A stretch of DNA of 61,916 nucleotides from an uncultured Candidatus Saccharibacteria bacterium (GCA_964518755.1 CAZFHH010000001.1:1-61916); one strand, 5' to 3'; counted from the first letter of the stretch, positions 1-61,916 are shown. Made by a program: numbers and translations. Notes: generated from the sequence alone by a model not told the origin.

Positions 1-393
1 AGGGAGCTGGGGGTACCCGAAATTCCACCTCGTGTGGAACTACGGTAAATTCAGTAACAAGGACTAAGTCGTAGGTGCAATCTGCACTCATGTTGCGACT
101 CTTAGCGAGCAATCGCTTTGCACAAACTTGGCTATATGCTGGAACGTCTGTGTATCCTGCGCTACGAGGTATATACTTAAATGATATGCCCGTGAAAATG
201 CGTCAGGTGCAGAAAATCAGCAGGGAAGTCCGCTGCGTGGAAACGCATGACCCCTCAGAGACTACACGCCGAGCTCCACAAAAATTACTTAGTAAGTTTT
301 GTGGATGAAGATATAGTCCATGCCTCATGGCGACATGGGGGTGCACATGAACAAGGCACGGCTAGCGGAAGCTGGTCGTGGATCATATCCAAA
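1..393 (+). rRNA. rrs: 16S rRNA gene, 3'-terminal part (truncated by window start), interrupted by an intervening sequence
   Basis: nt 2-21 GGGAGCTGGGGGTACCCGAA matches the conserved 5' strand of helix 44 (E. coli ~1415 onward). nt 44-62 GGTAAATTCAGTAACAAGG resembles E. coli GGUGAAGUCGUAACAAGG (to 1505). nt 357-380 CACGGCTAGC-GGAA-GCTGGTCGTG folds as a fully paired 10-bp helix 45 with the universal GGAA loop. It is followed by GGATCATATCCAAA, which aligns position by position with GGAUCACCUCCUUA. The small ORFs here (75..308, 247..525, 285..578) look spurious. Confidence 0.65.
63..356 (+). other. 294-nt intervening sequence inside the 16S gene; junction is ambiguous within the 7-nt direct repeat AACAAGG (56-62 and 350-356)
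   Basis: This stretch lies between the GTAACAAGG landmark and helix 45, where E. coli 16S is contiguous. It has no credible ORF. It is rich in tetraloop hairpins: AGCGA-GCAA-TCGCT (104-117), TGCGT-GGAA-ACGCA (234-247) and CCACAAAA...TTTTGTGG (276-304). Confidence 0.55.
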
Positions 394-564
394 TGGAATG
401 GGCTATTCTCGAAAGGGATAGCATTGTCGATCTGTGTACTTCGGTACGCAGGGGAGATAGCACTGTCCCTAAACTGTGCTCGGATGCCGGAGAGCGATAC
501 CGGTATCGTGAGGGGGATCATATGACCCTCCCACGATGAATAGGCGGAACGCAAGAGAACACAT

Positions 565-608
565 CGTAATAACCCCATAACTCATAAATGAGTTATGGGG
601 TTATTACG
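565..608 (+). terminator. Long perfect hairpin between the 16S 3' region and tRNA-Ile (terminator or processing stem)
   Basis: CGTAATAACCCCATAACTCAT / ATGAGTTATGGGGTTATTACG form 21-nt perfect inverted arms, followed by TT. Confidence 0.5.
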
Positions 609-716
609 TTACCTATATATTTAGGAATGCGTCTCGTGTTTGGCAAATAACTGGAAACTGGTGCCGATATCTGTTACTATCGCATTATACGCATTGTGTG
701 GGCGTGTGTAATAAAT

Positions 717-791
717 GCGAGTGTAGCTCAGATTGGTTAGAGCACTCCCCTGATAAGGGAGAGGTCCCAGGTTCGAGTCCTGGCACTCGCA
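717..791 (+). tRNA. tRNA-Ile (anticodon GAU), CCA not encoded
   Basis: Full cloverleaf: acceptor GCGAGTG/CACTCGC, D stem GCTC/GAGC, anticodon stem CTCCC/GGGAG with loop CTGATAA (GAT), T arm CCAGG-TTCGAGT-CCTGG, discriminator A. Confidence 0.93.
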
Positions 792-950
792 CAAAAACAA
801 GGAGTATGGTGCGGAGCATCATGGCGACTATGTTTTTATGGTGAGTACCGGGGTTCGAACCGAAGCCGCCGCGAAGCCCGACGAAACAAAGCCCCTACCC
901 GTCGCCTCCGGCGGGGCGGGGCAAGCGCTATTTCAGCACTATTCAAAACC

Positions 951-8737: not shown

Positions 8738-9409
8738 ATGCCACGATCATTGCGCATAGATAAAGGGGGAGAAATATATCACTGCCTTAACAGGGCGGTT
8801 GGACGGCAAACTATCTTTAAGGATGGGGATGGCTATCGGCTCTTTGAATCTGTGCTGCAAGAGACCGTTGATATTACTGGTATGCGCATACTCGCGTATA
8901 GTCTTATGCCAAACCATTTCCATCTGGTGTTGTTTCCGGAAAAAGATGGAGATTTGTCAGCTTTTATGAAGCGCATCACTGCCACCCATACGCAACGTTA
9001 TCGTGTAATAACGGAAACTGTGGGCGAGGGTCCATTGTATCAGGGAAGGTATAAATCTTTCATGATTCAAGATGATAATCACTTGTTAACTGCTCTTAGA
9101 TATGTTGAACGAAATCCACTAACCGCGCAACTTGTAAAAAACATACTTGAGTGGAGGTATGGAAGCGTGTACAGGAGATACAAAGGTACAGATAGAGAAA
9201 AGAAGATTCTTTCTGCTTGGGTGTGCGATGAACCGGAAGATTATCTTCAATTCCTTGCACATCCTATCACAGAGAAGGAGTATGAAAAGATTACACAATC
9301 CGAAATAAAAGGAGTACCGTTTGGTGATGATGAATATGTATCCACAACGGTAAAGAAATATAATCTTAATTCAACGCTTCGCGCAAAAGGGAGGCCAAAG
9401 AAAGAATAA
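8738..9409 (+). CDS. REP-associated tyrosine transposase (RAYT; IS200/IS605-like Y1 HUH transposase)
   Basis: 223 aa. HUH motif NHFHLVL. Downstream QGRYKSF...LRYVERNP gives the catalytic-Tyr helix context. The gene is bracketed by two REP units in opposite orientation (central TCAGA vs TCTGA). Confidence 0.8.
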   Translation: MPRSLRIDKGGEIYHCLNRAVGRQTIFKDGDGYRLFESVLQETVDITGMRILAYSLMPNHFHLVLFPEKDGDLSAFMKRITATHTQRYRVITETVGEGPLYQGRYKSFMIQDDNHLLTALRYVERNPLTAQLVKNILEWRYGSVYRRYKGTDREKKILSAWVCDEPEDYLQFLAHPITEKEYEKITQSEIKGVPFGDDEYVSTTVKKYNLNSTLRAKGRPKKE

Positions 9410-10207: not shown

Positions 10208-10552
10208 ATGTCATCTGAAAGTACTCTCATTTTATTTGGTTTACTCGTTGTAATAACGCCATATAGCGGTGTGCCGACATTTTGGTATACGTACATACTC
10301 CCGATACTTGGTATCGTTATAATAGGTATCGGTTTTTTGTTCCGTTCACGCCGTGTTTCTTCTCAAAGCAACACCACACAAACAACACAGCAAACACCTT
10401 CCTCTGCTTCTGCAAATGACTCGGCGGAGTTTCAAGAACATCTCAACAAGCGTGATGAGGAGTCATCCGTATCGGCATCTTGCTCTGCGGAATCGTCTGA
10501 TGCGCAACAGCCAGCATCATCCTCACGCAAAGACCCGTCACCGATTTCATAG
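10208..10552 (+). CDS. Small membrane protein (two TM helices, S/T/Q-rich tail)
   Basis: 114 aa. Hydrophobic segments LILFGLLVVITPY and ILPILGIVIIGIGFLF. It lies directly upstream of the ATPase gene. Confidence 0.5.
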   Translation: MSSESTLILFGLLVVITPYSGVPTFWYTYILPILGIVIIGIGFLFRSRRVSSQSNTTQTTQQTPSSASANDSAEFQEHLNKRDEESSVSASCSAESSDAQQPASSSRKDPSPIS

Positions 10553-10635: not shown

Positions 10636-12543
10636 ATGAACAATCCGGACAAAGTAACTTATTTTGCAGCGACAAATGCCCGCGGAGTTTCGGTGCCGTT
10701 TGGCATCAAACAGGAAGACCGCTCCAAGCACATGTATGTCATCGGGAAGACAGGCATGGGGAAGTCAACCATGCTTGAGAATATGGCAATCCAAGATATC
10801 CGCAACGGTGAAGGGCTGGCATTTATTGACCCGCATGGGGCTTCGGCGGAAAGGATTCTTGACTACATTCCCCCGGAGAGAGTAAACGATGTTGTGTATT
10901 TTGCGCCGTTTGATCTTGACCAGCCGATAGCATTTAACATTATGGAAGATATCGGCTACGACAAGCGACATCTTGTTGTCTCGGGACTTATGTCCACTTT
11001 CAAAAAGGTGTGGGTTGATGCGTGGAGTGCCCGCATGGAATACATCTTAAGCAACACGTTGCTTGCACTTCTTGAATATCCCGGCGCCACATTGCTTGAT
11101 GTAAATCGCATGTATACGAACAAAGAGTATCGCAAGCAGGTAATTGACAACGTGAAAGACCCACTCGTGAAAGATTTTTGGACAAAGGAATTTACAAACT
11201 ATACAGACCGCTACACCCAAGAAGCGACACCTGCAATACAAAATAAAATCGGGCAGTTTACCAATAATCCACTCATTAGAAATATCATCGGTCAACAGAC
11301 ATCTTCGTTTAATATTCGCGAAATGATGGACAAGCAAAAGATTCTAATCGTTAATCTTTCAAAAGGGCTTGTGGGAGATACAAACATGCTTTTGCTCGGT
11401 TCAATGCTCACCACGCATATTTTCCTTGCGGCAATGAGCAGAGCGGACAGCAGGATTTCAGTTGGTAAGGATGTGTCTCCATTTTTCTTTTACGTTGATG
11501 AATTTCAGAATTTTGCGAATGAATCTTTTTCTGAGATTCTTTCCGAGGCGCGAAAATATAAATTGGATTTGATTATCGCACATCAATATGTTGAGCAGAT
11601 GCAAGAGGAGGTGCGCGCAGCGGTGTTTGGGAACGTTGGCACCACGATTGCCTTTCGTGTCGGTCCGTTTGATGCGGAGGTGTTAGAGACGATATTTATG
11701 CCTGAGTTTACAAAAGAGGATTTGGTAAATTTAGGATTTGCGCATATTTATTTATCACTGATGATTGACGGCGTTGGCTCGCGTCCGTTTTCGGCGATAA
11801 CCATTCCGCCAATTGAGCCACCGCCACGCATTTATACACAGGAAGTTATACAGGCCTCGCGTACGCAATTTGGACATCCGCGACAGGAAGTGGAAGATGC
11901 CATTATAGCCATTTTATCCGAAGGGTCTCATTCTTCCGAGCAATCACGTGTATCGCGCCCGGTACGCAATGGAAGGGAAAATAGACCAGGCGCGCGTGAA
12001 GCGCGCCCAGCATACGATAAGGGTGAAGCAAAGGCAACTCGCGCAACGTCTGCACCCGCGCGCGCGCCGTTTGCACAAGAAAAGCATGATATGATGCCAC
12101 GCGCGATGTCAGAGCATGGTGGCGGGGAGAGTAGAGGCGCCTTGCGAGCAAAAAAAGACGCTTCCGGCGCATCACTGCGTGATGTCATCGCTTCCGTAAC
12201 AAATGTATCTCATGAAGATGAGCAAAAAAAGAAAAAACAAGATCAAAGCAAATTGAAGAGGGCACTTTCCGATGTGCTTGGGCGTGCGGAAGACGGTGAA
12301 CATCCCGGCGCGGGCGGAGCCCACGCCGGGGCGGATACATTTGGGCGTGCGGAAGACGGTGAACATCCCGGCGCGGGCTCCGCCCGCGCCGGGGCGGGTT
12401 TTCCAGCCCATGTCGCCACCGACGCCGACGCCGAAGGCGGCGGGGGCGGGGCAAAGAAAGAGCAACAAAAAAATGAGCCCGTACCAAAGCCATTTGAGGT
12501 ATCAGAGCGGAAACTGAAAGATGTTCTCAATGGAGATTCGTAG
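10636..12543 (+). CDS. VirD4/TraD-like (type IV secretion coupling-protein-like) P-loop ATPase, soluble, with a disordered repeat-containing C-terminal tail
   Basis: 635 aa. Walker A VIGKTGMGKST followed by FIDPHG, Walker B FFFYVDEFQNF, then ARKYKLDLIIAHQY...FGNVGTTIAFRV. No N-terminal TM helix. The last ~200 aa are low-complexity (R/A/G/E-rich). Clear paralog of 53589..56369. Confidence 0.7.
   Translation: MNNPDKVTYFAATNARGVSVPFGIKQEDRSKHMYVIGKTGMGKSTMLENMAIQDIRNGEGLAFIDPHGASAERILDYIPPERVNDVVYFAPFDLDQPIAFNIMEDIGYDKRHLVVSGLMSTFKKVWVDAWSARMEYILSNTLLALLEYPGATLLDVNRMYTNKEYRKQVIDNVKDPLVKDFWTKEFTNYTDRYTQEATPAIQNKIGQFTNNPLIRNIIGQQTSSFNIREMMDKQKILIVNLSKGLVGDTNMLLLGSMLTTHIFLAAMSRADSRISVGKDVSPFFFYVDEFQNFANESFSEILSEARKYKLDLIIAHQYVEQMQEEVRAAVFGNVGTTIAFRVGPFDAEVLETIFMPEFTKEDLVNLGFAHIYLSLMIDGVGSRPFSAITIPPIEPPPRIYTQEVIQASRTQFGHPRQEVEDAIIAILSEGSHSSEQSRVSRPVRNGRENRPGAREARPAYDKGEAKATRATSAPARAPFAQEKHDMMPRAMSEHGGGESRGALRAKKDASGASLRDVIASVTNVSHEDEQKKKKQDQSKLKRALSDVLGRAEDGEHPGAGGAHAGADTFGRAEDGEHPGAGSARAGAGFPAHVATDADAEGGGGGAKKEQQKNEPVPKPFEVSERKLKDVLNGDS
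12278..12403 (+). repeat. Two tandem copies of a 63-nt unit inside the ATPase C-terminal tail
   Basis: TTGGGCGTGCGGAAGACGGTGAACATCCCGGCGCGGGC occurs at 12278 and again at 12341. It encodes GRAEDGEHPGAG twice. Confidence 0.85.
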
Positions 12544-14113
12544 ATATTTAATTATTGTATTTGTGTTGGTGCTCGCTCCTTCGTTTGTGCATGCGACAGG
12601 CACGGTGCGCATCAATGAAATAGCATGGATGGGAACAAAGACGAGCGCAAATGCCGAATGGATAGAACTTTTTAATATCGGAGATACGAAAATCCCGCTC
12701 AACGGGTGGACATTGAAAGCAAAAGATGGTTCACCGAACATCCACTTTTCCTCAAAAGACGCCATAAGCCCTCACGGGTATTTTCTTTTGGAACGCACAC
12801 GCAATGGAGCGGTGTCGGGAGTTACCGCAGACAAAATATACACAGGAAGTTTAAAAAACTCCGGCGAGGCATTGGTGTTGACCAACAATGCATCTACAAC
12901 CATAGATACGGTGATAGGCGGGAAAAACTGGTGTGCAATCGGCGGCAATAATTCAACGAAACAAACCGCCCAGCGCACGGCATCCGGCTGGATAACAGCA
13001 ACCGGAACTCCACGGGCAATAAATGTCGCTATCGGGGTGATGCCATCGTGCGCGACAGTGCAAAACCCCGGCGCCGGCTCCGCCGGCGCCGGGGTTGGTA
13101 CCACCACCGCTACCAATACGGCAACTACCACAGTAACTGCCGCTACCACCACAGTAATCCAAACTTCAGCCACATCAAATTCGGGGCACGATGGACCACC
13201 GGAGTTTGAGCCTGTGCCCGCGGTATTCATTTCCATCGGTAAGGACATGGATATAGTTGCCGGAGCCGATGTCCGTTTTTCAGCGGAGGTAACCGATAAG
13301 TCGGGGAAACAATATTCATCTGCAGTTGTCTATTGGGCTTTCGGAGACGGTTCAAAAGCAACCGGCACAAGTGTTTTTAAAAACTATCGTGCGCCCGGCA
13401 CATACGCGGTGGTTGCAAATGCTGTGCAAGGGCTTGGCAGCGGGGAAGATGATTTAACGGTAACGGTTCGCAATGTACATGTATCCATACCAAGCGTTTC
13501 TGCTCGCGGAATTACCGTGCAAAATAATACGCCATATCGTTTGGATATGTCATTGTGGCGATTGCGTGCTGGCACCACTACTTTTGCGCTTCCTTTACAC
13601 ACGGTCATCTTGCCAAATACAGCAGTACTTTTTCCTAAGGACATCACAAAACTCTCTGTGACCAACAACACGGTACTTCTGTATCCAAATGGTAAAGAGG
13701 TGGCGCGGTATGCATTCGGAAGCAGTGCCAAGCGTGTAGCGCTTGGCACTGCGAAGAAACTTTCTCCGGTGTCTGTTCGTTATAGTACTGTACAGGGAGG
13801 TGAGAATGGGGATGAAAATACCCAACGCGCGATGCAACAGCATATTATTAACGCACATAATACACCATTATCGTATGATGCTGAAACGTCAATAGCCCCC
13901 GCGTCGGCGATAGACATCGCCGACGCGGGGGCACCCGTTGCCGAAGCGTTTTCGGGCAGGGGCGTCACCTCCGTGGCGCCCCTGCCCGAACCCTCCGCAA
14001 CATCCGCAATATCGTCACCAACCTCTTTCACTCACAGGTTTCTTTCTGTACCATGGACCCTCCCGCTGTTGCTCATCCTCATCCTCTCTATAGCCGGTTT
14101 CATTCTGCTGTAG
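12521..14113 (+). CDS. Secreted, C-terminally anchored surface protein with lamin-tail domain (LTD) and PKD domain
   Basis: 530 aa. Signal-peptide-like N-terminus. LTD signature VRINEIAWMG...EWIELFN...GWTL, a T/A-rich linker, PKD-like ...VYWAFGDGSKATGTSVFKNYRAPGTYAV, and a C-terminal TM helix LPLLLILILSIAGFILL. The start overlaps the ATPase gene end. Confidence 0.7.
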   Translation: MFSMEIRRYLIIVFVLVLAPSFVHATGTVRINEIAWMGTKTSANAEWIELFNIGDTKIPLNGWTLKAKDGSPNIHFSSKDAISPHGYFLLERTRNGAVSGVTADKIYTGSLKNSGEALVLTNNASTTIDTVIGGKNWCAIGGNNSTKQTAQRTASGWITATGTPRAINVAIGVMPSCATVQNPGAGSAGAGVGTTTATNTATTTVTAATTTVIQTSATSNSGHDGPPEFEPVPAVFISIGKDMDIVAGADVRFSAEVTDKSGKQYSSAVVYWAFGDGSKATGTSVFKNYRAPGTYAVVANAVQGLGSGEDDLTVTVRNVHVSIPSVSARGITVQNNTPYRLDMSLWRLRAGTTTFALPLHTVILPNTAVLFPKDITKLSVTNNTVLLYPNGKEVARYAFGSSAKRVALGTAKKLSPVSVRYSTVQGGENGDENTQRAMQQHIINAHNTPLSYDAETSIAPASAIDIADAGAPVAEAFSGRGVTSVAPLPEPSATSAISSPTSFTHRFLSVPWTLPLLLILILSIAGFILL

Positions 14114-17090: not shown

Positions 17091-18235
17091 GGGCGCTTTT
17101 CATATCAAACGACCCGACTATTTTTGATATGCAAAGTGCGACGCACTCGCGCATGAAAACCTATGCCAATGCCATAGGTGAATTGCACATTCTTTCCCGA
17201 GCGATGCAACATACGGAAGTGCAAGACGGAAATTTGTATTTGCATGGGTTGCGCCCACTGCCAACAATCATCGGGCGCGCGCTGTTTTTCTATACGCTCC
17301 TTCGCCATGCCCGAGCACTGGTGCGCCGACACCGCATTGAAGTGGTGTCGGCGCAAGACCCTTTTGAAAATGGGTGGGTTGCCATGCGCGCCGTTAATGG
17401 AACGTCGGCAAAATTACACATACAAATACACACAGATTTTCTCTCATCATTTTTCACGATCGGCTCTTTTAAAAACAAAGTGCGCATACGCATTGCCAAT
17501 GCTGTCATCCCGAAAGCCGATGGCATTCGGGTTGTCTCTCGGCGTATAAAGCGTGCACTTATTGAACGTTATGGAAAGAGTATTCCAAGTCCGACAGTTA
17601 TACCCATTGCTGTCCTTGCGCCCACTTCTGTTCGCACCACACAATCACACTATCCGCCACTGCCAAAATTTCCTTTCACGTTTGCGCTTATGGCAGTGGG
17701 AAGACTGGAGAAAGAAAAGCGTCTTGGTGATGCCATTGCCGTTGTGGCAAAGTTAGTGCAGAGAAAATATCCGGTTGGGCTTTTGATTGTCGGAGAGGGC
17801 AGTCAGCACAAAACACTCACACATATTGCCAATGCGCTTGGCATAAAAGACCGAATCATCTTTCTTGGAAACCGCTCTGATGTGCCAGAGTTGTTAAAAA
17901 ATACCGCGCAGGCATTCATTCAAACAAGCGCATATGAGGGATATGGGCGAACATATATTGAGGCCGCACTTTCCGGTGCACCGATGGTTGTAACCGATGC
18001 CGGAATTATCAATGATGTATTCGTACACGATTATTCATCGCTTGTGTGTCCTGTGGGAGATGTTGAGTGCCTTTCCAAGCACGTTGCGAATCTTATTGAA
18101 GACATGGTACTGCGACATCAGCTTAGCAGTTGTGCACAGGTAGTCGTACAACAATATATCGCTTCTTCCGGAAATATTCCAAACCGCATCGCCGAAGACT
18201 TGGACAAAACCATTTCGCGCTTACGAGAGTTATAG
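17087..18235 (+). CDS. Glycosyltransferase family 4 (GT-B)
   Basis: 382 aa. EGYGRTYIEAALSGAPMVVTDAG. ATGA overlap with the previous gene. Confidence 0.75.
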   Translation: MRALFISNDPTIFDMQSATHSRMKTYANAIGELHILSRAMQHTEVQDGNLYLHGLRPLPTIIGRALFFYTLLRHARALVRRHRIEVVSAQDPFENGWVAMRAVNGTSAKLHIQIHTDFLSSFFTIGSFKNKVRIRIANAVIPKADGIRVVSRRIKRALIERYGKSIPSPTVIPIAVLAPTSVRTTQSHYPPLPKFPFTFALMAVGRLEKEKRLGDAIAVVAKLVQRKYPVGLLIVGEGSQHKTLTHIANALGIKDRIIFLGNRSDVPELLKNTAQAFIQTSAYEGYGRTYIEAALSGAPMVVTDAGIINDVFVHDYSSLVCPVGDVECLSKHVANLIEDMVLRHQLSSCAQVVVQQYIASSGNIPNRIAEDLDKTISRLREL

Positions 18236-48645: not shown

Positions 48646-48674
48646 AAATATCGGACATCCGATGTCCGATATTT
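48646..48674. repeat. Hairpin AAATATCGGACAT-ccg-ATGTCCGATATTT (same core as 18286-18338)
   Basis: 13-bp perfect stem, immediately after the gatB stop. Confidence 0.85.
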
Positions 48675-48682
48675 GCAATCCA

Positions 48683-49081
48683 ATGAAAAATCAAACAACA
48701 GAATTCTCATTTACTTTAAAACCGTCAAAATATGGGATCGGTGTTTTTGCTAACCATGATATTACAAAAGAAAGCCACCTTAGGTTATTTGGTAATAAGA
48801 ACAATGACCGTTATGTGGCGGTCACAAGGAATAAAAAAGATGTACCTAAAGATTTTGAATCATATTGTATAGGTAGGAGAGATAAAAAATTATTGTGTCC
48901 GGGAGATTTTGGATGTATGGAGATTGGTTGGTATCTTAACCATTCTAAATCTCCCAACGCCTATCATCGTAATTATGATTACTATGCGTTACGTGATATA
49001 AAAGCCGGGGAGGAAATTGTAATTGATTATAATACGCTTGAAGAACCGGAAGAATTAAAAGATGATTATTACAAACAGTAG
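48683..49081 (+). CDS. SET-domain protein (putative protein-lysine methyltransferase)
   Basis: 132 aa from ATG 48683. NHSKSPNA (NHSxxPN) and GEEIVIDYN motifs. AT-rich relative to gatB. Confidence 0.7.
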   Translation: MKNQTTEFSFTLKPSKYGIGVFANHDITKESHLRLFGNKNNDRYVAVTRNKKDVPKDFESYCIGRRDKKLLCPGDFGCMEIGWYLNHSKSPNAYHRNYDYYALRDIKAGEEIVIDYNTLEEPEELKDDYYKQ

Positions 49082-50375: not shown

Positions 50376-50799
50376 TGGTGGAAGTGGGGAGAATTGAACC
50401 CCCGTCCGAATTCGGTCTTTGAGATGCGTCTACGGTGCGTAGCTTTTGTTTATATGTGAGACAAGGTGCGTAAATGAAAGCAAAATCCTCCTTGTCTCAT
50501 CCATTTTAAGATTTAAGCGATATCTCCAAATGGAAAGGGAATCGCCGATTTCGCAAAAGATGTCGCCTCATTATATTGTACGAACGCAAGATATAACGAA
50601 ACGCGCTTTCGAGCGACGAGCGTTATGCTCGAGCCGTTGCGAAAGCGAACGCAAAGTCGTTCATACCGAAGTATGGAGACACTGCGCGTGCAAGAGTTTT
50701 CTTGGCACTTATGGTTTGCTCGCACAGATTTAGGTGATAAGCGAGCGTGCACCGCACCGCACATTCTCAAAGAACAAACCGTCAAAGCCGGTCACCCCC
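50376..50799 (-). ncRNA. ssrA: tmRNA (SsrA), about 424 nt, CCA encoded
   Basis: On the minus strand the 5' end reads GGGGGTGACCGGCTTTGACGG. The 3' end reads GGACGGGGGTTCAATTCTCCCCACTTCCACCA (tRNA-Ala-like T arm and acceptor). It lies directly downstream of smpB. Confidence 0.9.
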
Positions 50800-50861: not shown

Positions 50862-51299
50862 TTACCCAAGTGCTCGTTGCGCTTCACGCTGTGCGTCTTT
50901 GCGTTTAAGGTATTCGCGTTTGTCAGACTTATTTTTCCCGCGAACAATAGCAATTTGCATCTTTAGTAAGTGTCGGTCATTATACACCGAGAGAGGTACT
51001 ATTGTCAACCCTTTTTTCATCTCAGCATTTGCAAGCTCTCGTATTTCTCGTTTAGTGAGGAGCAATCGGCGTGTGCGTGATGGGTCATATTCTTTGGGAG
51101 TGTTGTTTACTTGATACGGCGGAATGGTCATCCCGATAACAAACACTTCGCCTGCCCGCACAATGATTCGCGAGCCATCAAGTTTCCCCAGTTTTTTCCG
51201 CAGTGTTTTCACTTCAGTACCAACAAGTTCAATACCCGCTGTGTATTTTTCAAGTATCTCATATTTGAGTCCCGCTTTTTTGTATGCAATCAATGTCAT
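50862..51299 (-). CDS. smpB: SsrA-binding protein
   Basis: 145 aa. GIELVGTEVKTLR, RRLLLTKREI and GLTIVPLSVY. Confidence 0.93.
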   Translation of the reverse strand: MTLIAYKKAGLKYEILEKYTAGIELVGTEVKTLRKKLGKLDGSRIIVRAGEVFVIGMTIPPYQVNNTPKEYDPSRTRRLLLTKREIRELANAEMKKGLTIVPLSVYNDRHLLKMQIAIVRGKNKSDKREYLKRKDAQREAQRALG

Positions 51300-53588: not shown

Positions 53589-56369
53589 ATGGAAGGAGTA
53601 CCACTGCGAACACCGGAAGAAGAGCTTGCGTATTTGCGTGAGCAGGTGCAACAAAAAGAAAGAGAGCTCGCTCAAAACGCGGTTGAGAACGGTGCCTCGG
53701 AAGAGGCACCGCAAGCACGCTTTGAGCGTGCGGCTGATGCTACGCTTGTCGCGCATCGCGCGGCGCCACCCGAAAATACCCTTGAAGAAAATTATCGCAT
53801 AACTGAAGACGAGGCGAGTAACAAGGCGCTCGGGCTTGATCCTGACAGTAACGATGACACGATGCTTGAGTTGCGTAGTATCATGGATGAACGGGGCATA
53901 AAAAATGCTTTTACAGTGTTGGGAAAACTCAATAATCCGCACATCACTGATGATTTCCATAGATTTTTGGTGCGCTATATTGCAGCCGGTTTTTTGCCAA
54001 AGGGACTTTCTGAAAAGGCGCCGGAATTCAAAGCGTTGCATATGGTGCTTTATGAGGTGCAGTTACCCGAATTCAAAAGTACGCAAGAAAATTCCCGAGA
54101 GAAACCACTCAAAGAAATGGTGTCTGTTATGGAGCAGTTTTATTCAGGACTACTTTCGGTTTCAGCGACAACGCCACAGGAGCCACCATACATAGTACTT
54201 GAAATGGCGGTACCTCTTGAAAGTGCCTTGCTTTCTTTTTATGTTGCCGTACCAAACGGGAAGCGGGATATGTTTGAAAAACAATTGCTTGCCATTTTTC
54301 CGTTGGCGCGTCTTTCGCTTCAGCCAAATGACTATAATATCTTTGTTGAAAATGGTACGACACTCATTTCAGAGGCACGCCTTACCACCGTTCCAATGCT
54401 GCCACTCAGAGATTACACAGAGTTTGACTATGACCCGCTTAATACTGTTCTGAGCGCATTTGCAAAAATTCAAGACAATGAAGAGGGTGCGGCATTGCAA
54501 ATAGTATTTTCACCGCAAGGTGAGCGATATGTGGCACACTATCGCAAGGTGTTGCAAGCTCTGCGCAAGGGCATGAAGCGCGGGAAAGCATTTAACATAC
54601 CAAGCACCACACTTGGTGAGGTGGGCAAAGAGTTCAAAGATTTTTTCTTTACTGGCAGTAAATCAAAGGAAGATGAGAGCAGGATTCGCGAAGAAGAAAA
54701 ACGACAAGCGGAGATAAATAAAAATGATATAGAGCAGCTTGAAAAGAAAATATCCACACCAATTGCCGGCGTATCTATGCGTCTTCTGGTTTCTTCTCCT
54801 GATGCCGGTCGCGCAGGGCAGGTCATTTCAGATATTGAATCGGCATTCAATCAATTTGATAATACATTGGGGAATCACCTGGAGTTTGCTCGTGTAAAAG
54901 AAAAGAAAATACATTCTGTTGCTGATGCATATTCGTTTCGTTTGCCCGGTGACCACCTTATGCCACTTTCACTTCGTGAGCTTTCAACTATGTATCATTT
55001 CCCGTCCACCGGCATCACTTCTTCACCGCATCTTAAGCAATCAAGATTTGCAACGGCGCCGGCTCCTGTTGATTTGCCAAAATCAGGAATACAAATTGGC
55101 GCCAACGTTGTACGTGGGCAAGAAATGCCAATATTTATTGATGACGAAGACCGTTTGCGACACCTTTATGTTATCGGTCAAACCGGTGCCGGTAAAACCG
55201 GTTTCCTAAAAACACTTATTGAACAAGATATGCGCGCCGGTCGTGGAGTATGTTTTATAGACCCGCACGGCAACGATATTTTGGACGTGCTCGCGGCGGT
55301 ACCTCCCGAACGGTATGACGATGTCATTTATTTTGATCCGGCATATCTTGACAGACCATTCGGGCTCAACATGCTTGAGTATGACCCGCAACGTCCGGAA
55401 CAAAAAACATTTATTGTGAATGAATTGTTCATGATATTTCGTAGCTTATATGGTGATGTGCCTGAAAGTATGGGCCCGGCGTTTGAACAGTATTTCAGAA
55501 ACTCCACCATGCTTATTATGGAAGATCCGGAATCCGGTTCAACCATGCTTGATATTGGAAGGGTTCTTTCTGACGATGCGTTTCGCAATATGAAACTTTC
55601 TCACAGTCATAATCCGGTAGTCAATCAATTTTGGACGGGCATTGCGACAAAAGCCGGTGGGGAAGCATCTCTTGAAAATATTGTTCCCTATATCACCAGC
55701 AAACTTGATGATTTTACCTCCAATGATTTTATGCGCCCGATTATTGGGCAACAAAATTCCTCTTTTGATTTCAGAGATATTATAGATAATAAAAAGATTT
55801 TATTGGTAAACCTTTCCAAGGGGCGATTGGGAGAACGCAACGCCAACCTGATTGGTCTCATCTTGGTGGGAAAGATATTTATGGCGGCGCTTTCTCGCGC
55901 CGATTCGCCCGGAGTTGATTTACCCCCGTTTTATTTCTACATTGATGAATTCCAAAATATCACTACAGATTCAATCCCGTCTATTCTTTCGGAAGCGCGC
56001 AAATATAAACTTTCACTCAATATCGCGCATCAATTCCTTGACCAGGTAAATGAAAAGACACGCGATGCTGTGTTTGGCAACGTTGGTAATATGGTCGTGT
56101 TCCGTGTTGGAGAAAAAGACGGTGAATTTTTCGCAAAACAATTTGCCCCGACTTTTTCAGCTCCTGATTTCATCAATATAGAAAATCGCAATGCGTATGC
56201 AAAGATTTTGGCTCGTGGAGTTCCACAGAAACCGTTTAATATCCGCACACTTAATCTTTCAGAGCGCAATCTCGCGCAAGTGGACGATTTAAGAGAGCTT
56301 TCGTATCTGACATATGGGCGCGACCGTGCAACCATTGAGGAAGAAATAAGAATACGATATCTCTCGTGA
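53589..56369 (+). CDS. VirD4/TraD-like P-loop ATPase with a ~490-aa N-terminal extension (paralog of 10636..12543)
   Basis: 926 aa from ATG 53589. The C-terminal half aligns with the other ATPase: LYVIGQTGAGKTGF...FIDPHG, FYFYIDEFQNI, ARKYKLSLNIAHQF...FGNVGNMVVFRV. The N-terminal half has no recognisable family. TATACT at 53575-53580. Confidence 0.7.
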   Translation: MEGVPLRTPEEELAYLREQVQQKERELAQNAVENGASEEAPQARFERAADATLVAHRAAPPENTLEENYRITEDEASNKALGLDPDSNDDTMLELRSIMDERGIKNAFTVLGKLNNPHITDDFHRFLVRYIAAGFLPKGLSEKAPEFKALHMVLYEVQLPEFKSTQENSREKPLKEMVSVMEQFYSGLLSVSATTPQEPPYIVLEMAVPLESALLSFYVAVPNGKRDMFEKQLLAIFPLARLSLQPNDYNIFVENGTTLISEARLTTVPMLPLRDYTEFDYDPLNTVLSAFAKIQDNEEGAALQIVFSPQGERYVAHYRKVLQALRKGMKRGKAFNIPSTTLGEVGKEFKDFFFTGSKSKEDESRIREEEKRQAEINKNDIEQLEKKISTPIAGVSMRLLVSSPDAGRAGQVISDIESAFNQFDNTLGNHLEFARVKEKKIHSVADAYSFRLPGDHLMPLSLRELSTMYHFPSTGITSSPHLKQSRFATAPAPVDLPKSGIQIGANVVRGQEMPIFIDDEDRLRHLYVIGQTGAGKTGFLKTLIEQDMRAGRGVCFIDPHGNDILDVLAAVPPERYDDVIYFDPAYLDRPFGLNMLEYDPQRPEQKTFIVNELFMIFRSLYGDVPESMGPAFEQYFRNSTMLIMEDPESGSTMLDIGRVLSDDAFRNMKLSHSHNPVVNQFWTGIATKAGGEASLENIVPYITSKLDDFTSNDFMRPIIGQQNSSFDFRDIIDNKKILLVNLSKGRLGERNANLIGLILVGKIFMAALSRADSPGVDLPPFYFYIDEFQNITTDSIPSILSEARKYKLSLNIAHQFLDQVNEKTRDAVFGNVGNMVVFRVGEKDGEFFAKQFAPTFSAPDFINIENRNAYAKILARGVPQKPFNIRTLNLSERNLAQVDDLRELSYLTYGRDRATIEEEIRIRYLS

Positions 56370-56425
56370 TGATGCATCAGTGGAGATTTCTATAAAATAG
56401 TGTGCCTGGATGGTGCAATATATAG

Positions 56426-56431
56426 TATAAT
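56426..56431 (+). promoter_or_regulatory. TATAAT box 7 nt upstream of the ATG at 56438
   Basis: AGTATAATAAATGTATG. Leaderless-type spacing. Confidence 0.4.
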
Positions 56432-56437
56432 AAATGT

Positions 56438-58735
56438 ATGCACGAAAAACCGCCACAACGAAAAGCGAAAACGCACGAAAAAGTTATCATTCACACTCGC
56501 GAAGAGAAGCCCGTGGCATCAGCGAGTAAGGAGAGTGCTCGTGCAAATAAAGCGACTCACACGAAAGTTGAATCACCGGAAAGAATTCGTATGCGTGAAG
56601 ATGTTTCCGATGCCAGAGCAAAAATGATTGTTGCCGAGTCGGCATATCTGCGTGCGGTGCGACTCAACCAAAAAGGTCATTCAACCGAAACGCACAAGGG
56701 TCGCGTGAGTGAACTGCGTGACGTATACGACCAATCTCGTGCTGATTTTTCAAACAAAGTAAATGAATCTGTTCGGACACGCTTGAATGAAAGTGAGTTC
56801 GGTATGACGTTTGTCATGAAAGATGATCCTGGGGAAACCGTTATAAAAAAAGTATCTTACACTGAGGCACAGAAAAAAGAAATTGAACGCCGGCATAATA
56901 GTATGGTGCTTACGCGTGATACCATTGATCGCGCGCATGACAGGAGTGTGGAAGCGCTTATGGGTAATGAGCGAGGAATATTCAAAAAAGTCTTTGGGTG
57001 GTATGCTCGTGCGAATAATCGCATGGAAACGAAAATAGCACGACTCATAACACGAAGAGCATATGAGTATCTCCCGCAAGAAGAAAAAAGTAAGAAACTG
57101 AAAACGGCGCGGAGAATTACTCGCGGGTTGCGCATTCTTACCTTTGCCGGTATCGGTGGTCTTGCCGGAGGTATCGCCGGTGCTGGGTATTATTTGTTTC
57201 GCTACATAGGCAGTGTTTTGTTGGGTTCTTTTGCCGGCAAAGGTGTTGGCAAGCACTTTATGAAAACCAAAGGCGCGCAACGTGCGCAGGACCTTGCTGG
57301 GGAACGCAAAAAGATTGATTCGGCATCAATTAAGTCTATAAGGGCTTTGGATTTGGCATACAAAAAGGGGTCGCCTGATGCGATTGAGAAAAGTCGCCGG
57401 AGGCGCGAGATGTTCACTGCGGTTCTTCTCGGCGCCGGGGCTTCCATCGGGTCCGCGGACATTCTAAGCAGGTTGCCTGTAATGGACGCTGTTGAGAAAA
57501 GTATGAGCCGATTACCATCTGCTTCTCACGGCATTGCAACCACCATCACAGACGAAACGCATTCGGCGATGCACAGCATTGGCGACTCAGCCTCAGACGA
57601 AGCTGAGAAATTGTTGGGAGATATATACAATGCGACCGCTCCTTCTTCGCATGGCGCCGCAACTGTCGGCGCGGCACACTCGGCAGCTATTTCCGCCACG
57701 CACGAATCATCCGCATCGGTGGCATCATCGGCATCGGCTACGTCGGTATCACATTTGGCACACGCTCCGGTTGCGCATGGTGCGCTTGCATCTGCGTCGC
57801 GTGTGGGAGTTGCTCCGGAAACGTTTGCCGGTGGTGCGCCGGGGCATGGGCTCGCCCCCGCCCACGCCGGCGGAGCCGGCGTGGGCGGGGGCTCTCCAGA
57901 CCGAGCGTTTGAGTCATATCAAACGCAACCCGATACTGCAATCGTCATTCCGTTTGCACCGCATTCCGGTGTTGCTTCCGCCGTTGCGCATCATGCCTCC
58001 GCAACACCGCATGAGGCACTAGCCACTCATGCCACTCATGCCACTCATGCGAATGCCGGCTCACCGTCGCAACACGATATATATTTGCGTGATGGTGAAG
58101 GACACATCGTTCATGATGGTTTCGGTCAGCCGGTGTATGCGGGGGCGGCGCCTCACGCCACACACATACCGACGCCCGCACATATTCCGCAAAACCCCAT
58201 CGTACATATGGAGAACATATCCGGAGCTCATGCCATTGCGGAATTACACAGCGAACTCGCGACGCACATGAATGAGCCAATAGCTGAAGTGCTGTACGGG
58301 AAAGGTTCTCCCGTACTATCAAAAGTTCATGAGCAAATTGTTGCCGTTGTATCACAGTCGGGTGTTGGACCTGCCAATAATGAAACCATTGCGCACTTTC
58401 TTACACGGGCGCAGGAAAGTATCGCGACACACGCCTCAAGCGCAGAGCATCTCATCGGTATGCATAACCTACACGTACCGATTCACAAAACTTTTTTGTA
58501 TGGGACACCAAATGGAAACGTAGTTGCTTTCGGTGGCGATTTTAATGCGCGTGCCATGCTGGCATATGAGTATCTTAGCGGTCATCCGGGGGCACACGTC
58601 TTAGCTGAGAATGTTGCCGGTACTCGGGTAATTGACATGTCTTCCACTCAGACAATCGTCGGGAAGGTTATGACTACCTCACGTCCAGGAACGTTTATCC
58701 CACCACTGCAATTCGCAGAGAATATAAAACCTTAA
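56438..58735 (+). CDS. Large hypothetical membrane protein (basic coiled-coil N-terminus, central TM helices, Ala/His/Gly-rich low-complexity region, C-terminal globular part)
   Basis: 765 aa. Hydrophobic segments LRILTFAGIGGLAGGIAGAGYYLF and FTAVLLGAGASIG. Region ~370-560 is A/H/S/G-rich. No family recognised. Confidence 0.6.
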   Translation: MHEKPPQRKAKTHEKVIIHTREEKPVASASKESARANKATHTKVESPERIRMREDVSDARAKMIVAESAYLRAVRLNQKGHSTETHKGRVSELRDVYDQSRADFSNKVNESVRTRLNESEFGMTFVMKDDPGETVIKKVSYTEAQKKEIERRHNSMVLTRDTIDRAHDRSVEALMGNERGIFKKVFGWYARANNRMETKIARLITRRAYEYLPQEEKSKKLKTARRITRGLRILTFAGIGGLAGGIAGAGYYLFRYIGSVLLGSFAGKGVGKHFMKTKGAQRAQDLAGERKKIDSASIKSIRALDLAYKKGSPDAIEKSRRRREMFTAVLLGAGASIGSADILSRLPVMDAVEKSMSRLPSASHGIATTITDETHSAMHSIGDSASDEAEKLLGDIYNATAPSSHGAATVGAAHSAAISATHESSASVASSASATSVSHLAHAPVAHGALASASRVGVAPETFAGGAPGHGLAPAHAGGAGVGGGSPDRAFESYQTQPDTAIVIPFAPHSGVASAVAHHASATPHEALATHATHATHANAGSPSQHDIYLRDGEGHIVHDGFGQPVYAGAAPHATHIPTPAHIPQNPIVHMENISGAHAIAELHSELATHMNEPIAEVLYGKGSPVLSKVHEQIVAVVSQSGVGPANNETIAHFLTRAQESIATHASSAEHLIGMHNLHVPIHKTFLYGTPNGNVVAFGGDFNARAMLAYEYLSGHPGAHVLAENVAGTRVIDMSSTQTIVGKVMTTSRPGTFIPPLQFAENIKP

Positions 58736-58746
58736 TCACACCCAAC

Positions 58747-59070
58747 ATGAACACGCAAACGCAATCCGGCTCACTTATTGACATGGTCATTTCCACGTTG
58801 CATCTATCTGATTATGCTCCGGAACAGCAGGAGGAACTTCTTGATAGATTTTCTGCTATACTGTTTGAGGATCTCATGGCGCGCTTCGTATTGCGTATGA
58901 CATCATCATCGCGCACTGAATTTTATTCACTTTTGGACCACGATATCTCCGAGAAGAAATTGATGTTGTTTATCGAGAATAATGTGCCTGATGTTGATGA
59001 GGCAACACGAGAAGCACTGCAAGATTTTACACAGGAAGTTTCCGAATTGGGCGAGCATGAGGTACACTAA
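58747..59070 (+). CDS. Small hypothetical acidic protein
   Basis: 107 aa. Starts 11 nt after the previous stop. Confidence 0.5.
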   Translation: MNTQTQSGSLIDMVISTLHLSDYAPEQQEELLDRFSAILFEDLMARFVLRMTSSSRTEFYSLLDHDISEKKLMLFIENNVPDVDEATREALQDFTQEVSELGEHEVH

Positions 59071-59102: not shown

Positions 59103-59645
59103 ATGAATAATACTTCCATTGCAACAGGTATCGCAGTCGCGATTGCACTTATCATCGTCATCGCCTCGTTCTTTTTTGGTATAAATATCTTTTCGCTTTT
59201 CTCTTCCTCCCCACGTTCTTCCACGCAAACAACGGAAACAACCTCCGCGCCATCAGCGAAAACATCCGCCCAAAAGTTTTCCGGTACTTCGGCACCTCTT
59301 CCAGCAGTTAAAAAACTTTCAATAACAGACGCCGTTGTCGGAACCGGTGTGGTTGCCAAGCCCGGTGATACCATCTCGGTACAATATGTTGGTAAGTTTA
59401 CAGATGGGAAAGTGTTTGATTCTTCGCAAGCGCACGGAGGCAAACCGTTTTCGTTTGTTCTTGGTGCAGGGAAAGTAATTAAGGGATGGGATGAAGGGCT
59501 CGTTGGAATGAAGGTTGGCGGAACGCGCCTTTTGGCAATTCCGCCGGCGCTCGGGTATGGCAGTCGCACTTTCGGTCCCATTCCGGCAAACTCATCGCTT
59601 GTCTTTGAAGTGAAGCTTTTGAACGTTGTCACTCCTAAAAGATAA
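59103..59645 (+). CDS. FKBP-type peptidyl-prolyl cis-trans isomerase with N-terminal membrane anchor
   Basis: 180 aa. TM helix IAVAIALIIVIASFFFGI. FKBP core GDTISVQYVGKFTDGKVFDSS...FVLGAGKVIKGWDEGLVGMKVGG...LVFEVKLL. Confidence 0.88.
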   Translation: MNNTSIATGIAVAIALIIVIASFFFGINIFSLFSSSPRSSTQTTETTSAPSAKTSAQKFSGTSAPLPAVKKLSITDAVVGTGVVAKPGDTISVQYVGKFTDGKVFDSSQAHGGKPFSFVLGAGKVIKGWDEGLVGMKVGGTRLLAIPPALGYGSRTFGPIPANSSLVFEVKLLNVVTPKR

Positions 59646-61033: not shown

Positions 61034-61091
61034 AGAGCCTTATCCCGTGGTTGTGAAGGCATACGCCTTCACAACCACGGGATAAGGCTCT
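61034..61091 (+). terminator. 58-nt perfect hairpin (27-bp stem) after tgt
   Basis: AGAGCCTTATCCCGTGGTTGTGAAGGC-atac-GCCTTCACAACCACGGGATAAGGCTCT. Confidence 0.6.
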
Positions 61092-61127: not shown

Positions 61128-61178
61128 GTGTGGTATTGTGTTGAAAGTATTCGGAAGTTCGGCATCGTGCCGAACTTG
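61128..61178 (+). repeat. Copy 1 of a conserved module: promoter-like GTGTGGTATTGTGTTGAAAGTATT plus hairpin
   Basis: 24 nt are identical to 61669-61692. This is followed by hairpin AAGTTCGGCA-tcg-TGCCGAACTT. Confidence 0.75.
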
Positions 61179-61208
61179 TTCATTGAAAGCACAAAAGAGG
61201 TGAGTCCA

Positions 61209-61598
61209 ATGAATACACAAGAGATTCTTTTTGTCGTGTTTTGGATTGTGGCAGTATCCGCGATGTGTGTGTTCGCGGATGGCATGGTAAAGGAGCATCT
61301 GAAAGGCATACGAAAAGATACCGTCAACAGTATAGCGGTTGGGATACTGTTGTTTGCAACCATTATGGAGGCTGGAGTTGTGATTCTCGGTGGATTTGGT
61401 CATGTTATATCCACCGCCATAATCATATCCCTTGTCCTCGTTATTGTGGTGATAGCAATAGGTGCTTATCTCATCGCTGGTGGACAAAGGAATAAGCGTC
61501 TGTTTGTTGCCGGGGCTGTCGTGGTCGTGGTGTACATGCTTAGCATGGTGGTGGGAATGAGTACATTTCTATTCCGATTTCTTTCCACCTGCGCATAA
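61209..61598 (+). CDS. Small polytopic membrane protein (hypothetical)
   Basis: 129 aa from ATG 61209, with four hydrophobic segments. The ORF-track start at 61128 lies in the repeat module. Confidence 0.55.
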   Translation: MNTQEILFVVFWIVAVSAMCVFADGMVKEHLKGIRKDTVNSIAVGILLFATIMEAGVVILGGFGHVISTAIIISLVLVIVVIAIGAYLIAGGQRNKRLFVAGAVVVVVYMLSMVVGMSTFLFRFLSTCA

Positions 61599-61668: not shown

Positions 61669-61722
61669 GTGTGGTATTGTGTTGAAAGTATTTGGAGGTT
61701 CGGCACAGGTGCCGAACCTCCA
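61669..61722 (+). repeat. Copy 2 of the promoter-like plus hairpin module
   Basis: GTGTGGTATTGTGTTGAAAGTATT, then TTGGAGGTTCGGCA-cag-TGCCGAACCTCCAA. The stem differs from copy 1 by a compensatory A>G / T>C pair. Confidence 0.75.
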
Positions 61723-61813: not shown

Positions 61814-61916
61814 AAAGGGGTCAGACCCCTTTTCTCCACCGATAGATTGGCTTTACAGTCAAACAAAGGGGTCAGACCCCTTTTCTCCAGACCCCTTTTC
61901 TCCACCGATAGATTGG
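61814..61916. repeat. REP cluster at the window end (two full REPs plus a half site; 25-nt direct repeat CCCCTTTTCTCCACCGATAGATTGG)
   Basis: AAAGGGGTCAGACCCCTTTT at 61814 and 61865. The direct repeat is at 61826-61850 and 61892-61916. Confidence 0.85.

Follow-up and report, generated by a model that had tools for sequence, protein, structure and literature searches.

Why would a bacterial chromosome carry two diverged copies of one secretion-type motor, each followed by a different large envelope protein? This question is raised by a 61,916-nucleotide stretch of DNA (hereafter the window) from an uncultured Candidatus Saccharibacteria bacterium (GCA_964518755.1 CAZFHH010000001.1:1-61916), in which we analyzed a large ATPase, ATPase2, with its neighbors (module 2), and its paralog ATPase1 with neighbors of its own (module 1; Table 1). 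We find that ATPase2, a soluble protein, belongs to the type IV secretion lineage of P-loop ATPases, within the FtsK/HerA superfamily. In the predicted structure its architecture resembles that of VirB4, a docking domain joined to a motor domain, and not that of VirD4, a transmembrane (TM) anchor joined to a motor domain. Of this identity and architecture, taken alone, we are highly confident. Our broader proposal is that ATPase2 derives by exaptation from the type IV secretion ATPases, has become part of the core genome and works at the membrane with lineage-specific envelope proteins; for this statement as a whole, including its mechanism, we put the chances at about even.

Judged by sequence, the core of ATPase2 is closest to the VirD4/TraD coupling proteins. 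Two Pfam models exceed their cutoffs, TraG-D_C (27.2 bits against 22) and DUF87, and TrwB_AAD_bind falls below its own (18.4 bits against 20.5). The NCBIfam models SXT_TraD (48.6/366 bits), the VirD4-like CD1115 (37/250) and TOL TraD (35.7/647) match far under their cutoffs. Models of VirB4, CedB/CedD and FtsK match at the P-loop only; for instance, TIGR00929 (VirB4) reaches 18 bits against a cutoff of 643. Neither the Pfam VirB4 families (CagE_TrbE_VirB, PF03135, PF19044) nor the NCBIfam model of HerA matches ATPase2; toward HerA, the Pfam match covers the DUF87 P-loop region only. An alignment of 35 family members shows no variation in Walker A (GQTGAGKT), in Walker B (YIDEFQN) or in the ARKYK...AHQ motif, and both ATPase2 and ATPase1 look catalytically competent. 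Neither protein has a credible TM segment; the hydropathy windows that rise above threshold sit inside predicted soluble domains.

The N-terminal ~490 amino acids had been described from the sequence alone as belonging to no recognizable family, which proved mistaken: precomputed Pfam annotation places DUF8128 (PF26449), DUF87 and TraG-D_C on ATPase2. A local Pfam scan, with model versions one step older than that annotation, did not report DUF8128. When only residues 1-495 served as the query, 139 proteins were recovered. Essentially all of these belong to Patescibacteria (Kaiserbacteria, Paceibacterota, Parcubacteria, Taylorbacteria and others), and nearly all of them carry a precomputed PF26449 match. 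With the full protein as query, an exhaustive HMMER search yielded 20,408 cluster representatives at a threshold of E<=1e-3, and 5,073 remained at E<=1e-30. We tallied domain layouts for 145 representatives out of the top 150 of these matches. With a hidden Markov model (HMM) built here, a DUF8128-type domain precedes the core in 122, of which 20 have the ~140-residue helical extension and 15 have C-terminal extensions of at least 300 residues; 17 representatives have some other N-terminal region of at least 250 residues and 6 consist of the core only, as does ATPase1. DUF8128 is thus the standard N-terminus of a very large family, catalogued but unstudied; no mention of it, or of DUF5663 (see below), was found in the literature searched. 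The region is therefore explained in part by a known domain, one with a predicted VirB4-like fold.

Other layouts occur in the family as well. Many DUF8128 ATPases (P0175-P0197; 1,000-2,006 amino acids) carry Pro/Ala-rich, TM-less C-terminal tails of 500-1,250 residues, of which the ATPase1 tail is a shorter version. Members of a sister subfamily (P0241-P0269, alignment A4), of ~840 amino acids, have the same core behind a ~400-residue N-terminal domain unlike DUF8128; the possibility that these N-termini are divergent DUF8128 was rejected (hhalign probability 1.5%). At a distant DUF8128-ATPase locus in a fragmented assembly (L002), a T4SS_pilin gene (PF18895) lies ~5 kb downstream (17414-17950).

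The case for a VirB4-like architecture comes from structure prediction. An AlphaFold2 model of ATPase2, built from the 35-sequence alignment, has a mean predicted local distance difference test score (pLDDT) of 85.4 and a predicted TM-score (pTM) of 0.72. In a Foldseek search of the PDB, its top 8 matches are all full-length TrwK, the VirB4 of R388 (E 3e-13 to 6e-12), in alignments of 860-927 columns that cover both domains. A separate model of residues 1-495 (pLDDT 81.9) has TrwK/VirB4 in all of its top 14 matches (E 9e-6 to 2e-3; 413-435 columns), and unrelated folds appear only from E>=0.02. Since no ATPase-only structure (TrwB, HerA, 4ag5) occurs in the match list for residues 1-495, the match is to the VirB4 N-terminal domain. 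TrwK (PDB 7o42, 7o43, 8rtd) was thus retrieved first by both models, and it resembles ATPase2 in its ~800-900 amino acids, in the domain order seen in the models (a docking domain of alpha/beta type, then a RecA-like ATPase that carries a helical insertion) and in its solubility, having no TM segment of its own. Because ATPase2 lacks a TM segment and its DUF8128 model matches the VirB4 N-terminal domain, we describe it as VirB4-shaped; the VirB4-like fold of DUF8128 is moderately supported by these models. The core taken by itself superposes best on TrwB (TM-score 0.62-0.66, target-normalized; root-mean-square deviation ~5.4 A); next in rank come Cag-beta, DotL, HerA and the C-terminal domain of VirB4. 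ATPase2 also differs from VirB4, in that it has no sequence match beyond the P-loop, TM-scores are low, and its gene is not beside VirB2, VirB3, VirB6 or VirB8 genes. Patescibacteria possess a separate, bona fide VirB4 (PMC12102498).

We next consider the paralog. The sequence-only reading had aligned the two motors block by block, and a formal alignment bears this out: BLASTP aligns ATPase2 residues 497-884 with ATPase1 residues 4-386 at 41% identity and 60% positives over 394 amino acids (E 3e-96), and all of the motif pairs quoted in that reading fall within the alignment. The ATPase1 core is up to 55% identical to some DUF8128-bearing subfamilies, against 41% to ATPase2, and it nests among DUF8128-bearing subfamilies in a crude, midpoint-rooted neighbor-joining tree of cores that carries no support values. 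Together, the nesting and the core identities suggest that ATPase1 lost DUF8128 secondarily. It was already published that Patescibacteria have around two homologues of the VirD4 type in each genome, most of them without linkage to virB4 (PMC12102498); what is new here is the domain architecture, the partners and the likely mode of membrane attachment.

Module 1 has conserved neighbors of its own. We surveyed 80 metagenomic loci that encode ATPase1 relatives (L086-L165). A member of the p114 family lies upstream of the ATPase1 gene at 62 of the 73 loci with enough upstream sequence, within 200 nucleotides at 49 of them. The two-TM hairpin of the family has the consensus MSR.S.LILLGVL.IL.PFSGLP...VIFGA.VLGIGLSLR; the Ser/Pro/Thr tail varies, and 'SPI' is frequently its end. 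We considered p114 as a VirB2, a VirB3 or a type IV secretion pilin and rejected these assignments, there being no Pfam signal even at E<=1. On the 3' side, a p530-like protein is encoded immediately after ATPase1 at 39/56 loci. A comparable arrangement exists in pIP501, where TraI, a small two-TM protein, is proposed to serve as an anchor for the coupling protein TraJ (PMC12857230); module 1 likewise pairs a TM-less ATPase with a preceding two-TM protein. However, p114 has no detectable relation to known families, module 1 is chromosomal and non-conjugative, and an interaction between p114 and ATPase1 is putative. An IS200/IS605-type Y1 transposase gene (8738-9409, plus strand) and a Fic-domain gene (~15.3-16.0 kb) flank the module.

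Module 2 lies on the chromosome of a Kaiserbacteria-type Patescibacterium, in a window whose housekeeping genes encode Mur ligases, MurB, SecA, Obg, GatB, tmRNA, SmpB, FtsH, FKBP and TGT. Its genes form a co-directional string in which 85 nucleotides separate FtsH from ATPase2, 68 ATPase2 from p765, 11 p765 from the DUF5663 protein p107, and 32 p107 from FKBP. The three open reading frames (ORFs) are where they had been placed: our ORF scan and public gene calls on identical copies of the contig agree on products of 926, 765 and 107 amino acids. A TTG start two codons 5' of the ATPase2 ATG is also open (53583). As observations in their own right, a tmRNA gene (tag peptide AKKTLARAVSPYFGMNDFAFAFATARA) is directly beside smpB (50376-50799 and 50862-51299, both on the minus strand) and upstream of ftsH, and protein-quality-control genes are abundant in the whole tmRNA-SmpB-FtsH-ATPase2-p765-DUF5663-FKBP stretch.

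The large protein p765 is built as the sequence-only reading had described it, with a basic N-terminus, TM segments and an Ala/His/Ser/Gly-rich region, and its charge bias predicts a topology with the N-terminus inside and the C-terminus outside. Searches of Pfam, NCBIfam, PADLOC and PHROG give no match to it. Starting from p765, an iterative HMM recovers 53 of 59 positional homologs; conservation is concentrated in two blocks, one being the TM region and the other a C-terminal domain of ~100 residues. The family layout comprises a variable N-terminus of 120-690 residues, predicted to be cytoplasmic, 1-4 hydrophobic segments, an acidic Ala/Pro/His/Glu-rich linker of 150-550 residues and the C-terminal domain, in which Y, GG, P and F positions are near-invariant (alignment A3). 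A profile of this domain from 22 sequences of A3 found one fragment in an index of 5.8 billion proteins, where the word index probably limits sensitivity, and had no match in the PDB. Energy-transducing stalks of the VirB10/TonB type similarly consist of a cytoplasmic N-terminus, a membrane anchor, a long low-complexity linker and a small C-terminal globular domain. The analogy is one of architecture only, and the p765 linker is Ala/Pro-rich in many homologs; p765 shows no sequence or structural sign of homology to these stalks, and its host is a monoderm with no outer membrane.

The remaining proteins of the string are better conserved. Between our genome and a sister genome, identities are 93% for FtsH, 93% for ATPase2 (the level of FtsH), 90% for SmpB, 88% for TGT, 80% for FKBP, 72% for the DUF5663 protein and 59% for p765, whose linker drops to 10-46% with many indels. 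This is the pattern expected of a rapidly diversifying surface-exposed protein, which p765 may well be. The acidic character claimed for p107 is confirmed (net charge -15). Its Pfam match to DUF5663 is marginal (23.9 bits against a gathering cutoff of 23.7), the precomputed annotation also gives DUF5663, and a DUF5663 family HMM finds p107 orthologs immediately after the large protein at 48 loci (E 1e-24 to 1e-34). The FKBP orthologs have an N-terminal hydrophobic membrane anchor in 57 of 57 cases, and the protein is therefore an extracytoplasmic foldase.

Table 1. Features of modules 2 and 1. Gene positions count from the first letter of the window; residue numbers refer to the protein named.
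Feature	Position	Strand	Description
ATPase2	53589..56369	+	926 amino acids counted from ATG; ORF scan
ATPase2, part	residues 1-140		Helical N-terminal extension
ATPase2, part	residues ~145-480		DUF8128 (PF26449), predicted VirB4 N-terminal-domain-like fold
ATPase2, part	residues ~495-890		P-loop ATPase core, VirB4/VirD4/HerA superfamily; all-alpha insertion 605-720
ATPase2, part	residues 895-925		C-terminal helices
p765	56438..58735	+	765 amino acids; fast-evolving membrane-anchored stalk protein
p765, part	residues 1-231		Basic, 52 K+R vs 34 D+E; predicted cytoplasmic
p765, part	residues 233-249 (to ~266), 327-343		Gly/Ala-rich hydrophobic TM segments, basic loop between
p765, part	residues ~347-650		Acidic Ala/His/Ser/Gly/Pro low-complexity linker; 401-600 Ala/His/Ser/Gly-rich
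p765, part	residues ~655-765		Conserved C-terminal domain, ~110 amino acids
p107	58747..59070	+	107 amino acids; DUF5663 (PF18908); two-gene cassette with p765
FKBP-type peptidyl-prolyl isomerase	59103..59645	+	N-terminal TM anchor; FKBP_C
ATPase1	10636..12543	+	635 amino acids; without DUF8128, without TM segment; ~245-residue low-complexity C-terminal tail
p114	10208..10552	+	Two-TM hairpin, Ser-rich tail; candidate membrane tether
p530	12521..14113	+	Signal peptide, Lamin-tail domain (LTD), PKD, C-terminal TM anchor; Pfam LTD 1.7e-17

How general is this gene string? Close relatives of ATPase2 occur in at least 537 GTDB species (one genome per species, DUF8128 alignment scan), from which we sampled 80 that, together with locus L001, give 81 loci, 71 of them with enough downstream sequence. 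A p765-family protein and then a DUF5663 protein follow the ATPase at 44 of these 71 informative loci. A p765-family protein stands without a detected DUF5663 at 5 (3 of them contig ends), DUF5663 accompanies a disrupted large ORF at 3, and another large ORF precedes DUF5663 at 1. The large ORF starts 2-60 nucleotides past the ATPase stop. Nearly every locus of the clade has FKBP and TGT further downstream; FKBP is in fact the most stably linked neighbor of ATPase2 there, and its membership in the system is uncertain. Overall, the site of p765 and DUF5663 behaves like a variable insertion point between conserved flanks. At the loci that lack the cassette (L038, L048, L065, L067, L076 and L082), the gap between ATPase and FKBP is 57-423 nucleotides. 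Both ATPases are intact and conserved, sit in a chromosomal setting among housekeeping genes and have conserved envelope neighbors; therefore, in agreement with the sequence-only reading, the modules are not a decaying conjugation remnant.

Relatives outside the Patescibacteria indicate where such a motor could have come from. The PHROGs family phrog_5156 matches ATPase2 residues 195-920 (E 7e-69) and matches ATPase1 over the core. With tblastn, homologs of 21-23% identity over 47-81% of the protein are found in SPO1-like Bacillus phages, phage G (gp156) and TP-84. Plasmids carrying homologs number 288 (Streptomyces 74, Bacillus 58, Staphylococcus 27, Clostridium 19, with haloarchaea and Sulfolobus also represented). 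Since homologs spanning both DUF8128 and the core occur on such plasmids and in Bacillus phages, the family is not strictly lineage-specific, contrary to the sequence-only reading. The DUF8128 model matches the predicted structure of gp156 (E 9e-15, TMq 0.45), and phrog_5156, gp156 of phage G, gp91 of phage CP-51 and the 'ATP-binding protein' of a C. botulinum plasmid share one architecture, a DUF8128-like domain followed by the ATPase, with tblastn identities of 21-23% over 72-81% of the protein. These phage and plasmid proteins differ from the Patescibacteria family in residing on mobile elements beside pilin- or relaxase-like genes, and in having neither the helical extension nor the p765/DUF5663 cassette. 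For instance, on C. botulinum pCLK a TrbC/VirB2 pilin gene shares its 3' end with the gene of an 800-residue homolog, which comes directly after the pilin, the canonical position of virB4. On Sulfolobus pMGB1 the homolog is a large TraG-like protein with a second DUF87 ATPase close by. In phage CP-51 (L169, 5791-9352), a partition protein precedes gp91, which is followed by the Replic_Relax protein gp90. Given these contexts, the ancestry of the ATPase family therefore lies in DNA-transfer elements of monoderm bacteria and archaea, and the published inference on the origin of the whole Patescibacteria type IV secretion system (T4SS) agrees with such an ancestry (PMC12102498). Homologs in Bacillus phages JL, vB_BceS-M2 and PBC5 (H8, H9, H21, H22) are labelled 'lipid A export ATP-binding/permease protein Msb', a label that seems to be erroneous.

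Based on these data, we propose the following. The family would have been taken from conjugative elements and fixed for a non-conjugative envelope function. ATPase2, like VirB4, would form a hexameric (or dimer-of-trimers) ring on the cytoplasmic face of the membrane, where DUF8128 could dock membrane proteins that are its partners by their tails or TM hairpins, in the manner of VirB4 with VirB3 and VirB8, and ATP hydrolysis would power the assembly, extraction or conformational energizing of envelope components. The preferred partner in this clade may be the p765 family, with a cytoplasmic N-terminus, a TM hairpin, an extended stalk and a C-terminal head outside. The DUF5663 protein might be an adaptor or a chaperone, while outside the cell the anchored FKBP might act as a foldase. 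In module 1, ATPase1 would be tethered to the membrane by p114, as proposed for TraJ and TraI. The specific docking on p765 and its energizing is the step that we advance most tentatively and regard as doubtful.

Several observations weigh against this proposal. The TM-scores between DUF8128 and the VirB4 N-terminal domain are low (0.27-0.33, with root-mean-square deviations of 9-10 A) and come from AlphaFold models only, the DUF8128 sequence profile yields only noise against the PDB, and in structure the core stands at roughly equal distances from VirB4 and VirD4. Nor is the gene string uniform: among the 71 loci, a large but unrelated ORF without DUF5663 occurs at 7, FKBP comes directly after an intact ATPase with no cassette at 6, and 5 have different neighbors (mostly in Campbell-, Nomura- and other more distant lineages; Taylorbacteria, too, have other neighbors). 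Promoter and terminator scans give counts not above those of shuffled sequence, so an operon is not defined by such signals. Where genomes are rather closely related, shared synteny can reflect inheritance of gene order and not functional coupling. Family members of 1,000-2,006 amino acids were considered as ATPase-p765 fusions and rejected, since their Pro/Ala tails are TM-less and match neither the p765 nor the DUF5663 HMM. The ATPase2-p765 link is soft. Finally, p530 carries its own Sec-type signal peptide and a C-terminal anchor, and a dedicated motor is therefore not needed for it. That each motor is wired to its own envelope protein holds in so far as the neighbors are conserved (44/71 and 39/56 loci) and is putative beyond that, the p765 link being soft and p530 having its Sec signal.

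Could the two ATPases instead be coupling proteins (VirD4/T4CP) for a chromosomal T4SS (virB4-virB3-virB6-pilin) located elsewhere in the genome? They would then recruit different substrates, and the downstream envelope genes would be incidental, or encode substrates or tethers. The best sequence-family matches are indeed of the TraD/VirD4 type. ATPase2 shares with VirD4, TraD and TrwB a RecA-like nucleotide-binding domain, the all-alpha insertion at 605-720, intact Walker A and B motifs and TraG-D_C. However, where those proteins have a TM anchor it has a 480-residue region, the helical extension plus DUF8128, with an N-terminal domain predicted to be VirB4-like, and curated coupling-protein models match it far below their cutoffs. 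Low-complexity C-terminal tails are common in the family, and such tails are like those with which TraD and DotL bind adaptors or substrates. Coupling-protein genes often lie far from virB4, and about two per Patescibacteria genome are counted as such (PMC12102498). We find no VirB4, VirB6, pilin, relaxase or other T4SS gene within the 62-kb window. The same survey reports 5,713 VirD4-type homologues in 2,918 of 3,035 Patescibacteria genomes, 148 of them near virB4, against VirB4 in 2,417 genomes, and in S. epibionticum the t4cp homologue is non-essential whereas other T4SS genes are essential (PMC12102498). ATPase2 is probably counted among those 5,713. These counts and this dispensability argue against a simple role as coupling protein for the T4SS, and we consider the explanation rather unlikely.

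A DNA translocase of the HerA/FtsK/Ced kind, acting in DNA uptake, chromosome processing or repair, with its membrane neighbors unrelated or serving as a DNA conduit, appears improbable. ATPase2 does match DUF87/HerA and FtsK_SpoIIIE, with weak matches to CedB, CedD and RadB, and HerA is among its structural matches; the phage homolog adjoins a nicking-type Replic_Relax protein, and there are weak PHROG matches to terminase-like P-loops. Yet these matches do not extend beyond the P-loop region and score far below cutoffs, ATPase2 has no gene for NurA, a nuclease or a DNA-binding domain nearby, the TraG-D_C region and the all-alpha insertion are like those of coupling proteins, and the conserved neighbors are envelope proteins. 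An anti-phage defense component (MADS mad8-like or HerA-type) or a mobile-element or prophage remnant, as could be read from a lone PADLOC match to mad8 (E 4e-12), weak HerA/DndH matches, phrog_5156 (E 7e-69) and the transposase and Fic genes near module 1, is very improbable and was rejected on context and conservation: ATPase2 would be a single component with no other MADS gene among its neighbors FtsH, p765, DUF5663, FKBP and TGT, it keeps a stable place between ftsH and fkbp-tgt over dozens of species, its 93% identity in the sister genome is typical of purifying selection on a core gene, it is present in nearly all Patescibacteria (PMC12102498), and no phage structural or integrase genes were found within the window.

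Our proposal of an exapted envelope motor also has a bolder form, in which type IV secretion ATPases have a third, previously unrecognized branch, the DUF8128 ATPases; with p765 as a hypervariable TonB/VirB10-like stalk, DUF5663 as adaptor and the anchored foldase, these would make up an autonomous minimal envelope machine. We think this a long shot. If true, a VirB4-type docking domain would be fused to a VirD4-like motor, the branch would have left conjugative elements to become a near-universal motor of the Patescibacteria core genome, and the machine could energize a surface organelle or move material between epibiont and host, independently of the virB4-linked T4SS. It is also possible that the DUF8128 ATPases are an evolutionary intermediate between VirB4 and VirD4.

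The window has other features as well. A SET-domain protein of 139 amino acids is encoded in this small genome, at 48662-49081 on the plus strand (Pfam E 6e-10). A perfect 27-bp inverted repeat lies immediately 3' of the TGT stop (61034-61091), a 37-nucleotide direct repeat, 95% identical between its copies (61128-61164 and 61669-61705), brackets a multi-TM ORF of 156 amino acids (61128-61598), and copies of the palindrome AAAGGGGTCAGACCCCTTT are present at the end of the window (61814-61916).

Much of bacterial diversity is accounted for by the Patescibacteria, which are host-dependent, and their ways of interacting with hosts are largely unknown. In the sole species tested, the Patescibacteria T4SS is essential, and its role has been called completely unknown (PMC11665869). 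Our analysis joins an orphan phage and plasmid family (phrog_5156, gp156, the C. botulinum plasmid ATPase) to the DUF8128 plus ATPase architecture, and it provides testable handles, namely the hypothesis that DUF8128 is a docking domain and the candidate partners p765, DUF5663 and p114. It suggests that many of the 'VirD4-like coupling proteins' of Patescibacteria are not classical coupling proteins but soluble, VirB4-shaped ATPases that, in one large clade, are tied to a rapidly diversifying surface stalk protein.

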